NCBI GenBank assembly: GCA_038893355.1
Contig: JAWARQ010000002.1
Span: 168,591-232,590 of the forward strand
DNA from: Sulfolobaceae archaeon
GTDB lineage: Archaea > Thermoproteota > Thermoprotei_A > Sulfolobales > Sulfolobaceae
Reading direction: 5' to 3'
DNA length: 64,000 nucleotides
The notes below the pieces were generated by a model, which was given only the letters and a program-made list of their open reading frames with translations, was not told the origin of the DNA and did not search any database. Numbering within the stretch: the first letter of the stretch is position 1; each line of letters opens with the position of its first letter. Both the position numbers and the translations under genes were made by a program. Shown piece after piece: positions 43,955 through 45,380 of the stretch.

Positions 43955-44854
43955 ATGAAGGTAATACTCGGGGTACCGGATACTCGTATACCAGTATGGG
44001 AATTTGGAGTGCCTATAATGATTAATCAATTATTTTGGGATCTAGTGCCCTGGGATAATGAAACATGGGTAGATTCTGGTGGATATCAGATTCTTATGAG
44101 GAAAATAAGTATAGATATATTGAATGTTCTTAAAAAGTATAAAACTCTAGATGCTGAAGTATACATGAGTTTAGATATACCATCTGAACCTTGTAAGAAT
44201 ATGGATGAGCGAAATATTAAGAATTTTGAATTTCTATATTCTAATCTAGGCAAGAAGGTTATTCCGGTAATTCATGGGTATTTGCCGAGTGAAATTGATA
44301 AGGCTCTAGATTTCTATAAGAGTTATTCTGATACTATCGCTTTTGGCGGAATTGTTCCACCTTCTTTAGGCAGGGTTAGCGGAAGAAGAATTATGATGTT
44401 AATGTATCACTATCTGAGAAAAAAAGTAAAGTTTATTCACGTATTAGGCGCAGGTTCGCCCTTTATGAGAAAGGTTTTCTTTAATGCAGATAGCGTTGAT
44501 ACAGCGAGCTATAGGATAAAGGCAGTAAATGGATTAGTGATAATCCCTGGTAAAGGTGAAAGATATGTAGGGGATAGAAAGATTATTTGGAAAGCTAGAA
44601 GAGCGAGTAGTGAAGAACTTGAAGAATTATTTTCGTTTCTTGATAAAACTAGATTTCCTTTCCCTATAAATATTAATAATTGGATCAGTAGAGCATTAAT
44701 TAATGCATGGGTTATGTTAAATAGCGAGTATAGTGATGATGAATATTTTTTAATAAGAGAATCAAGAGCTTTATCACGATTGAGTGAAGATGAATTAGCG
44801 GAGGAGATAATGAATGAGTGTATGTCAAGAACTAGAAAGAGAATTAGGAATTAA
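43955..44854 (+). CDS. TGT-fold (queuine/archaeosine transglycosylase-like) protein lacking PUA domain
   Basis: DSGGYQ, SLDIP, PVIHG, AFGG, HVLG, DSVDT; no CxCxxC zinc motif, no PUA extension. Confidence 0.85.
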   Translation: MKVILGVPDTRIPVWEFGVPIMINQLFWDLVPWDNETWVDSGGYQILMRKISIDILNVLKKYKTLDAEVYMSLDIPSEPCKNMDERNIKNFEFLYSNLGKKVIPVIHGYLPSEIDKALDFYKSYSDTIAFGGIVPPSLGRVSGRRIMMLMYHYLRKKVKFIHVLGAGSPFMRKVFFNADSVDTASYRIKAVNGLVIIPGKGERYVGDRKIIWKARRASSEELEELFSFLDKTRFPFPININNWISRALINAWVMLNSEYSDDEYFLIRESRALSRLSEDELAEEIMNECMSRTRKRIRN

Positions 44855-45380
44855 GGAGAAAGTAAAATTAGTCAAGTCTAGAGATATTGATTTATTTCAA
44901 CACCCTATTGTTAGGTCTTGGCATAATTATATACTATATAAATGGTTCTCAAATAAGCCATATGCCTTACTCTTACCTTGTACTTCCATAAAGCCTTATT
45001 CACTTTCACGAACCCATAAAGCAGCATACTCCATATTAAAAAAGTCAGGAAGAGAAAGCGAGGTTCAAGTATATTCAATTTCGGAACCTATGTTACTAGT
45101 TCCTAGAGAGTTCGAGGAGTGTTATCCATTTAATAATTATGATTACCCTCCACATCTTATGAGTGATGAAGAGAAAGAAGAATTCATTTCATTATTAATA
45201 GAACCATTAAAGAGGATAAGTGGTATGCATAAGAAGGTTTTGGGAGTACTACCTAAACATCACTACGAAATAGTAAAGAAGGCTTCTGAGATTGCTAAAT
45301 TGAACATAGAATTAATAGCCTATGGTAGATTACCCTTTAAGAGTATATCATTAGGGATTCGAAAGCTTATTTTTGAGTAA
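44814..45380 (+). CDS. DUF5591 / ArcS-core-like protein
   Basis: LLLPCTSIKPYSLSRTH, SEPMLLVPREFE, YDYP resemble the archaeosine synthase core. Confidence 0.8.
   Translation: MSVCQELERELGIKEKVKLVKSRDIDLFQHPIVRSWHNYILYKWFSNKPYALLLPCTSIKPYSLSRTHKAAYSILKKSGRESEVQVYSISEPMLLVPREFEECYPFNNYDYPPHLMSDEEKEEFISLLIEPLKRISGMHKKVLGVLPKHHYEIVKKASEIAKLNIELIAYGRLPFKSISLGIRKLIFE

Follow-up and report, generated by a model that had tools for sequence, protein, structure and literature searches.

This work concerns a cluster of six genes in the genome of a Sulfolobaceae archaeon (NCBI GenBank assembly GCA_038893355.1, 1.40 Mb in 17 contigs, 84% complete). The cluster lies in a stretch of 64,000 nucleotides from contig JAWARQ010000002.1, which we call the window, and its positions are numbered within that stretch. 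The genes, A to F, occupy 43955-51932 on the forward strand, and the listing of open reading frames gives successive gaps of -41, 79, 11, -17 and -4 nt between them. A (43955..44854, 299 amino acids) is a minimal, DpdA-like transglycosylase with the fold of the tRNA-guanine transglycosylases (TGTs). B (44814..45380, 188 amino acids) is a stand-alone DUF5591 protein that corresponds to the C1 core of ArcS and resembles ArcS2. C (45460..47091, 543 amino acids) is an ATPase of the HerA/FtsK class. D (47103..50174, 1023 amino acids) has an N-terminal P-loop of the AAA_22/STAND-like type and a long remainder mostly without assignment. E (50158..50865, 235 amino acids) has no assignable family, and F (50862..51932, 356 amino acids) is a paralogue of the NurA nuclease family. 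Our reading, to which we give a probability of about 0.55, is that these genes make up a Dpd-like archaeal system of DNA modification and restriction in which a 7-deazaguanine would mark DNA as self.

The transglycosylase and its ArcS-like partner

An earlier reading of the letters alone, the sequence-only reading, described A and B as a TGT paralogue without PUA domain or zinc site next to a minimal ArcS core. Alignments, structural models and the DUF5591 score bear this out. The ATG of B sits within the final 14 codons of A in the +1 frame, an overlap of 41 nt, and this arrangement suggests that translation of B may be coupled to that of A. The motifs of A are WVDSGGYQ (with D40), LDIP (D74) and DSVD (D182), and they align with the VDSGSFQ, LDIP and DLFDS stretches of the archaeosine TGT (arcTGT) of Pyrococcus horikoshii. 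D40, S41, G42, G43, D74 and D182 are invariant in all 65 rows of the family alignment; D40 and D182 are in the two catalytic Asp motifs first picked out in this protein, DSGG and DSVD. Three Asp are invariant across TGT and DpdA (PMC10164549). We conclude that A has no CxCxxC zinc site because it contains only two cysteines, C80 and C289, each of them Cys in 21 of the 65 rows, and no other column of the alignment reaches 30% Cys.

The AlphaFold model of A (mean predicted local distance difference test score, pLDDT, 94.4) is a single barrel with C-terminal helices and no extra domain. VIA-align places it on the catalytic domain alone (residues 34-352) of the arcTGT 1iq8, with Z 22.3 and a root-mean-square deviation of 3.0 over 258 residues, and on human and bacterial TGTs with Z of about 20-22. 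The top Foldseek match is 1j2b (3.9e-9). A profile of the A family compared with the PDB finds 1iq8 at 3.4e-14, Salmonella DpdA (7ui4) at 2.9e-7 (33 bits) and Cap10 (9ntn) at 0.0079. Curated models recognize the protein poorly. No Pfam family, PF01702 (TGT) included, matches it at E<=0.1, and its sole NCBIfam match is TIGR00432 (TgtA), which scores 24.4 bits against a cut-off of 350 and covers residues 30-85 only. A does belong to PHROG phrog_887, 'queuine tRNA-ribosyltransferase' (4.1e-40). Its isoelectric point is 8.99. Prediction of an A+B complex from two alignments scored 0.00 in two runs, made without control runs, and counts neither for nor against a complex.

Relatives of A at E<=0.001 number 117 (90% clusters), and an exhaustive library holds 179, of which 10 reach E<=1e-30. 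The named carriers are Sulfurisphaera, Saccharolobus, Acidianus, Sulfolobus tengchongensis, Sulfuracidifex and Stygiolobus, and further Aramenus, Conexivisphaera, Ignisphaera, Desulfurococcaceae and Caldivirga. Of the more distant representatives 75 (337-479 amino acids) were scanned, and all of these fall under the cut-offs for TgtA (best 158 against 350) and for DpdA (best 61 against 200). A therefore stands in a large unnamed body of short TGT-like proteins.

B is a member of Pfam family DUF5591 (PF17884; 1.2e-18, 67.8 bits against a cut-off of 26), and a Pfam search finds no other DUF5591 gene in the genome. Against the ArcS equivalog model NF040592 it scores 72.9 bits where the cut-off is 440, and the match covers positions 271-415 of 575. 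The full-length ArcS architecture, Nt-C1-C2-PUA, is not that of this 188-residue protein. The motif LPC..KPYS.S.TH, which the sequence-only reading saw in the overlapping gene, is intact here as PC-X3-KPY-X2-S-X2-H, the form quoted in PMC10516641, and P55, C56, K60, P61, Y62, S65, T67 and H68 do not vary among the 29 homologues aligned. The family profile finds 2q07 (AF0587) in the PDB at 8.1e-13, and the model (pLDDT 91.9) fits the same structure with Z 13.8 over 135 residues. B belongs to PHROG phrog_34505 (8.9e-65). A scan of genome contigs with the B alignment gave 12 loci, the two peptide patterns used in it being narrow. PMC10516641 and its preprint say in one sentence that some archaea encode the ArcS C1 domain separately, and among the full texts searched DUF5591/PF17884 is mentioned only in these two. 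Pfam scans find no radical-SAM gene among the cluster genes, and no search aimed at RaSEA was made elsewhere in the genome. The next structural match of B is Escherichia coli YaaA (DUF328), with Z 6.5 over 135 residues, which is inside the noise band. Bacterial DpdC is placed in DUF328, and we treat the match as no more than a lead. The term DUF328 does not occur in the available text of PMC10164549.

The pair is not the genome's only route to archaeosine, since a canonical TGT and a GAT-QueC are both encoded. The TGT is on another contig (C1:72346-73311, Pfam TGT 4e-78); the protein has 506 amino acids, a full TGT domain (3.3e-77) and a CSCIIC motif. The GAT-QueC fusion has 467 amino acids and combines Pfam QueC with an N-terminal glutamine amidotransferase domain, in agreement with the earlier remark that Sulfolobales are reported to make archaeosine in this way rather than by ArcS. 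QueD is encoded as well. That A is not the only TGT in the genome favours the sequence-only reading, which saw the substrate as DNA or a non-canonical RNA site. In the control genome, that of Sulfolobus acidocaldarius, TGT and QueC are present and no DUF5591 gene was found.

The closest characterized relatives of the pair are viral, so the sequence-only reading was right to bring in viral pairs of DpdA and minimal ArcS. In the phage collection A matches 35 records, all of them Sulfolobales viruses, with 59.6-61.2% identity to STSV1, STSV2 and STSV4 and 36-40% identity, over at least 88% of the length, to the rudiviruses SIRV1-11. B matches six records, which include STSV1/2/4 at 55-57% and, weakly, Methanobacterium virus PhiF1. 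The STSV2 genes STSV2_15 and STSV2_16 have been named DpdA and ArcS2 (PMC10516641). They have the gene order of A and B with frames that overlap by 23 nt, and the STSV4 pair is arranged in the same way. The STSV1/2/4 pairs are thus like ours in identity, order, overlapping frames and the PCx3KPYx2Sx2H motif. They differ in that the viral pair follows a thymidylate synthase and a DNA methyltransferase gene, whereas A and B are chromosomal and head a HerA-NurA cluster; no HerA or NurA gene was found at the STSV2 and STSV4 loci. STSV2 DNA contains dCDG at 0.04% of G, and the available text of PMC10516641 leaves this chemistry unexplained. In plasmid DNA, DpdA2 of phage nt-1 alone gives dPreQ0, and together with ArcS2 it gives dG+ (PMC10516641).

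We built a quick maximum-likelihood tree of 46 rows, with support from the Shimodaira-Hasegawa-like approximate likelihood-ratio test (SH-aLRT) only. The rows are 36 of more than 260 relatives (named organisms and a spread of others), four viral proteins, five proteins from metagenome loci and the genome's own arcTGT. The STSV2/4 and rudiviral copies are nested inside the cellular Sulfolobaceae-type clade with an SH-aLRT of 100, and the canonical arcTGT clusters with distant TGT-like proteins. A check of phylogeny had been proposed with the sequence-only reading, and by this tree A groups with viral DpdA.

The N-terminal domain of ArcS is not known to carry the transglycosylase aspartates. We rejected an origin of A from a split ArcS, as an N-terminal domain that had become detached, since A keeps all three aspartates and is grouped with viral DpdA.

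Homologues of A and B are also present, by source names, in Sulfolobus tengchongensis, which hosts STSV1/2 (proteins P0016 and P0274). The STSV2 host is said in PMC10516641 to encode no protein of the Q/G+ pathway, a statement given there without the data. A pair encoded by the host may be relevant to the dCDG of STSV2 DNA, for which there is no explanation yet. A second observation concerns transporters. In SIRV1 (L182 1793-3921) and SIRV10 (L183 1808-3903) the A homologue, of the ORF306 type, is directly 3' of an 'aminoacid permease' gene, and in metagenome locus L178 a Vut_1 transporter gene precedes the A homologue. We take Vut_1 to be the family of the preQ0 transporter YhhQ. The title of PMC5372724 links YhhQ (COG1738) to preQ0 transport. 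One recurring partner may be a transporter that brings in the base.

The presumed HerA-NurA arm and its distribution

C matches DUF87 at 3.9e-31, above the Pfam cut-off, and has the Walker A motif GETGSGKS. The HerA models of NCBIfam score far below their cut-offs, anti-phage HerA models match at 1.1e-14 and 6.9e-14, and the PADLOC HerA model matches at 4.5e-31. F matches NurA (PF09376) at 6.7e-13, also above the Pfam cut-off. Both are extra paralogues beside the canonical genes. The canonical nurA is at C4:71795 (1.9e-35), and the canonical herA is 4.4 kb away at C4:76931 (1.8e-46). The genome has three NurA-family genes in all. The third is a NurA-like gene (402 amino acids, 7e-16) paired with a HerA-like gene (599 amino acids, DUF87 6.7e-16) at C4:116340-119345 (L184 6341-9345), with overlapping frames. 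This pair is apart from both the canonical herA/nurA and the six-gene cluster, and it is flanked by a thioesterase gene and a phosphoglucose-isomerase-like gene that adjoins cysteinyl-tRNA synthetase.

The other two members of the presumed arm are harder to place. D has a weak match to nSTAND_NTPase5 (0.0043, below the cut-off) and otherwise only sub-threshold P-loop matches in Pfam and NCBIfam. Its nearest Atlas clusters are archaeal 'ATPase' clusters (score 0.95), and in Sulfolobaceae loci it always lies between C and E/F. E finds nothing above threshold in Pfam, PADLOC, PHROGs or Atlas, where its best feature score is 0.77 and its best structure TM is 0.39. Its place is kept all the same, as described below. 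Between genera, D has 33-39% identity where C has 57-62%, and in a divergent lineage (genera g9 and g11) D falls to 23-25% and C to 44-46%. It seems that the arm is evolving more quickly than A and B, the writer pair.

Our sample of the order is 201 genomes, including 26 of the window's family, with thresholds of E<=1e-10 for A and E<=1e-30 for C. A is in 76 of the 201 genomes and in 18 of the 26 Sulfolobaceae, where it is all-or-none by genus. C is in the same 18 and is missing from the same eight. D is in 29 of 46 further genomes of the family, in the same genera as A. Across the order, the 50 genomes with C have A in 44 cases and no A found in six, these six being 55-99% complete. Among the 151 genomes without C, A is present in 32 and was not found in 119. 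Such an asymmetry (44/50 against 32/151) is what one would expect of a restriction arm that depends on its modification arm. Genomes with the HerA-type arm almost always have a TGT-like writer too, and the writer pair can stand alone.

We also compared the gene neighbourhoods of A, each of about 16 kb, in these 18 Sulfolobaceae genomes, which carry A and are distinct from that of the window. All six genes are contiguous, in the order A-B-C-D-E-F, in eight of the 18 loci. B is no more than 3 kb from A in 17 of them (10 downstream on the same strand, 3 divergent and 4 otherwise placed), and it was not seen in the remaining one, which is on a 10-kb contig. The spacing varies, with the two genes overlapping, spaced or divergent and up to about 2.4 kb apart. 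Where A and B stand by themselves, the C-D-(E)-F block lies intact elsewhere, and 11 such detached loci were compared. C and D are there in all 11, F is in 10 (one contig is cut) and a homologue of E is detectable in 7; in the contiguous clusters E is at the same place in eight of eight. The genes that flank the cluster in the window do not recur beside it in the 18 loci, except for one match to the major facilitator superfamily (MFS).

The same parts come in other orders in distant lineages. Of 80 metagenome loci with an A relative, 26 hold B and 13 have a HerA-like match, many of the contigs being only a few kb long. Five of these loci, with A at 36-43% identity, were annotated with Pfam; over all the distant loci the identity of A is 35-44%. 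In L139 a 1498-residue protein, HerA and NurA are on one strand and A and B on the opposite strand. In L159 the order is A, B, NurA, HerA and a 1478-residue AAA_22 protein, and in L178 it is the Vut_1 transporter, A, B (reverse), NurA, HerA and a KAP-type NTPase. L155 has NurA divergent from A and B. L160 has HerA, two unrelated genes, A and B, and then NurA on the reverse strand. Among the genome contigs, L095 has B, A, HerA and D; it was binned as a Thermogutta metagenome-assembled genome and is more likely an archaeal contig in the wrong bin. Hidden Markov models (HMMs) of the Sulfolobaceae C and F give the distant HerA genes 263-533 bits and the NurA genes 24-71 bits, with the HerA of L160 at 33 bits. 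That these parts have been put together repeatedly and in different orders is, we consider, the strongest argument that A, B, HerA and NurA function together.

Some details of DUF5591 genes outside the window's family can be added. In eight genomes scanned, families f2 and f10 carry a long DUF5591 gene (frames of 456-536 amino acids) beside the short one, and the long form may come closer to a full ArcS. The short gene of f2 keeps a constant distance of about 53-56 kb from the A homologue in four of the five f2 genomes tested.

A DNA modification reading and its alternatives

The strongest pointer to DNA as the substrate is that the neighbours are a HerA-like, a P-loop and a NurA-like protein, a context that the sequence-only reading had missed. 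We consider it likely that A and B carry out DNA modification of some kind. That the substrate in the cell would be DNA and not RNA is suggested by the gene context and by analogy with the viral homologue. The product could be an amino-acid-conjugated preQ0, as the sequence-only reading had supposed, and this is speculative.

The steps of such a system can be pictured as follows. The cell pathway (QueD and GAT-QueC) would supply preQ0 or a derivative. A would swap guanine for that base in double-stranded DNA, with D40 as acid/base, D74 for base recognition and D182 as nucleophile, by analogy with bacterial and viral DpdA and perhaps with help from an ATPase of the cluster. B would then tailor the nitrile of the inserted base to give dG+ (an amidine), dADG/dCDG (by hydrolysis) or an adduct with an amino acid. 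Finally the HerA-like hexameric motor, the P-loop protein D, the 235-residue E and the NurA-like F would translocate on unmarked DNA and resect it. The viruses, STSV1/2/4 with A and B and the rudiviruses with A, would have captured the writer genes, probably to disguise their own DNA. We hold more tentatively to the widest version of this scenario, which we would sooner bet against than for. In it the chromosomes of many Sulfolobaceae and related hyperthermophiles would carry a hitherto undetected 7-deazaguanine (possibly dG+ or a new amino-acid adduct) written by DpdA/ArcS2 and read by a HerA-NurA-P-loop machine, and the writer genes would have been stolen by STSV and SIRV, whose DNA could then pass for self.

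The precedent is the bacterial Dpd system (DpdA-K). DpdA exchanges G for preQ0 in DNA by the TGT mechanism with two essential Asp, it requires the ATPase DpdB, and DpdC then tailors the preQ0 in DNA (PMC10164549). Our cluster is like it in having a TGT-superfamily transglycosylase with the same three Asp and a second enzyme that would tailor preQ0, as well as ATPase, helicase and nuclease genes in one cluster; the host preQ0 pathway is needed there too. It differs in that bacterial DpdA has about 400 amino acids and a large insertion, Ins8, whereas A has 299 and lacks Ins8. Bacterial Dpd uses DpdB, DpdC and DpdD-K, while here an ArcS core would do the tailoring and the presumed arm is HerA, a large P-loop protein and NurA. 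C and F are of the same families as the HerA-NurA end-resection complex and the bacterial NurA-HerA and HerA-effector defence systems. The bacterial NurA-HerA systems mainly degrade viral double-stranded DNA according to a 2026 review (PMC13748450). None of these resembles our cluster in joining the two to a 1023-residue P-loop protein, a 235-residue protein and deazaguanine genes.

Several results weigh against our reading and should be set out together. The first group concerns linkage. A is in all 17 genomes of genus g15 and all six of genus g20, and C is in none of either. All 10 genomes tested in f2, g15 and g20 have short DUF5591 genes, so in g15 and g20 the writer pair does not depend on the arm. 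A-B and the HerA block are widely separated in roughly half of the Sulfolobaceae genomes, lying at 1.69 Mb and 0.61 Mb in one of them; the unlinked cases are g7, g9, g11 and part of g2 and g5. In family f2, A and a HerA-like gene co-occur hundreds of kb apart. The counts given above also overstate their statistical weight because related genomes are not independent, and the all-or-none pattern in Sulfolobaceae could be one or two loss events. The second group concerns identity. PADLOC recognizes the HerA component alone and has no match for A, B, D, E or F. A does not match the NCBIfam DpdA model NF041059 at E<=0.1, and in sequence and fold its likeness to the arcTGT of tRNA exceeds that to bacterial DpdA. 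DpdA 7ui4 is not among the best 50 VIA-align entries, which bacterial TGTs fill, and we draw no conclusion from this. No ParB-like ATPase of the DpdB type and no DpdC came up when the six cluster genes, and these only, were scanned with Pfam, NCBIfam and PADLOC; of the two absences, that of DpdB counts against us. HMMs of D (13 sequences) and E (10 sequences) have no match at E<=0.01 in the giant ATPases of L139, L159 and L178, so homology of the 'large ATPase' across lineages is not established.

The linkage results are what one would expect if A and B make a stand-alone 7-deazaguanine mark in DNA, epigenetic or protective (for thermostability, say, or against other nucleases), and HerA-D-E-NurA is a separate repair or defence module that is often nearby. 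The 17 genomes of g15 and six of g20 with the writer pair and no HerA-like gene fit this, as do the unlinked blocks and the viruses that have A, with or without B, and no HerA block. Against this stand the same components in at least five gene orders across distant lineages, the presence of A in 44 of the 50 genomes with the HerA-like gene, and a presence and absence that match in 26 of 26 Sulfolobaceae. We regard this alternative as unlikely, and it survives better than the others.

The likeness to arcTGT leads to a slightly less probable alternative, in which A and B are a second RNA pathway. As a split and reduced arcTGT/ArcS set, A would insert preQ0 at a non-canonical site in tRNA, rRNA or another RNA and B would complete the modification. 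arcTGT is indeed the best match of A in sequence and fold, and the family of B is that of the tRNA enzyme ArcS. A shares the fold and catalytic residues of the tRNA archaeosine pathway (arcTGT, ArcS/RaSEA, GAT-QueC), and B shares the fold and motif of the ArcS C1 domain. Lysine transfer to preQ0 by Thermococcus ArcS needs RaSEA as a partner and works even on a nucleoside (PMC11298593), so that RNA could be a substrate for a core that lacks PUA. The pair is also inherited genus by genus, as a housekeeping function might be. However, the zinc site, the C1/C2/PUA domains and the ArcS N-terminal domain of that pathway are all absent from A and B, and with them the C-terminal domains by which a TGT binds tRNA. 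The genome already has a TGT and GAT-QueC, and the pair was not found in S. acidocaldarius or in eight of the 26 sampled Sulfolobaceae. Its neighbours are DNA motors and nucleases and not RNA enzymes. Finally, viruses carry the pair, and the DNA of STSV2 is modified (PMC10516641).

It is very improbable that A works like Cap10 and puts a deazaguanine derivative on one of the cluster's own proteins (HerA, D or NurA), thereby priming or regulating it: Cap10 shows that proteins can be substrates of TGT folds, and the A profile touches Cap10 at the E of 0.0079 given above, with the Cap10-CdnD complex at rank 42 in Foldseek (E 9e-7), but this match is far weaker than that to arcTGT, Pfam scans find neither the QueC-like Cap9 nor a cyclase among the cluster genes, and viruses retain A, with or without B, in the absence of the putative protein targets, modified DNA having been measured in STSV2. 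Type IV CBASS (cyclic oligonucleotide-based antiphage signalling system) is still a useful comparison since it also has a TGT-fold protein within a defence system. It differs in that Cap10 modifies protein and comes with Cap9 and a cyclase.

If the modification-restriction reading is right, on which we would put slightly better than even odds, what is new here is that archaea modify DNA with a 7-deazaguanine by a system whose tailoring enzyme and presumed restriction arm are both different. DNA 7-deazaguanines are known so far from the Dpd island of bacteria and from the genomes of phages and viruses. In the full texts searched, which leave out most subscription journals, we met no description of a cellular archaeal DpdA/ArcS2 system and no paper that connects deazaguanine genes with HerA/NurA; an earlier mention elsewhere is possible. 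Carriers of the A/B family by name include Sulfolobus islandicus, Saccharolobus shibatae and species of Sulfurisphaera and Acidianus. Genetically tractable model archaea would then have in their DNA a base that has gone unrecognized, along with a new restriction arm for which HerA/NurA paralogues were put to use. The same reading would account for two open points of PMC10516641, the presence of DpdA and ArcS2 in STSV2 and the origin of the deazaguanine in its DNA, and would explain why rudiviruses conserve a 'tRNA-guanine transglycosylase' gene.

Flanking genes and the upstream region

On the 3' side the cluster is followed by a convergent MFS transporter gene and then by glutamate synthase and a haem-copper oxidase gene. 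On the 5' side lie genes for a vWA protein similar to ArnB, for a GTPase and for an Sso7d-like protein. The ArnB-like gene (40330-41481, forward strand; ArnB_C 2.2e-20) is 2.5 kb 5' of A. The gene at 43376-43582 on the reverse strand, divergent from A, encodes 68 amino acids, and by eye we take its product to be a chromatin protein like Sso7d/Sac7d. An integrated provirus of the STSV type was considered as an identity for the cluster and rejected, because STSV loci have only A and B in common with it and the flanking genes are cellular. The G+C content is 0.339 in A, 0.328 in B, 0.277 in D, 0.224 in E and 0.267 in F, against a mean of 0.312 for the window. Between A and the Sso7d-like gene is an AT-rich intergenic region of 372 nt (43583..43954, forward strand) with no listed ORF of at least 50 amino acids, which is the presumed promoter region of the cluster. 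Within it, in AT-rich sequence 5' of A (43720-43770), the 12-mer GAAGATCGAATT is present twice within 40 nt.

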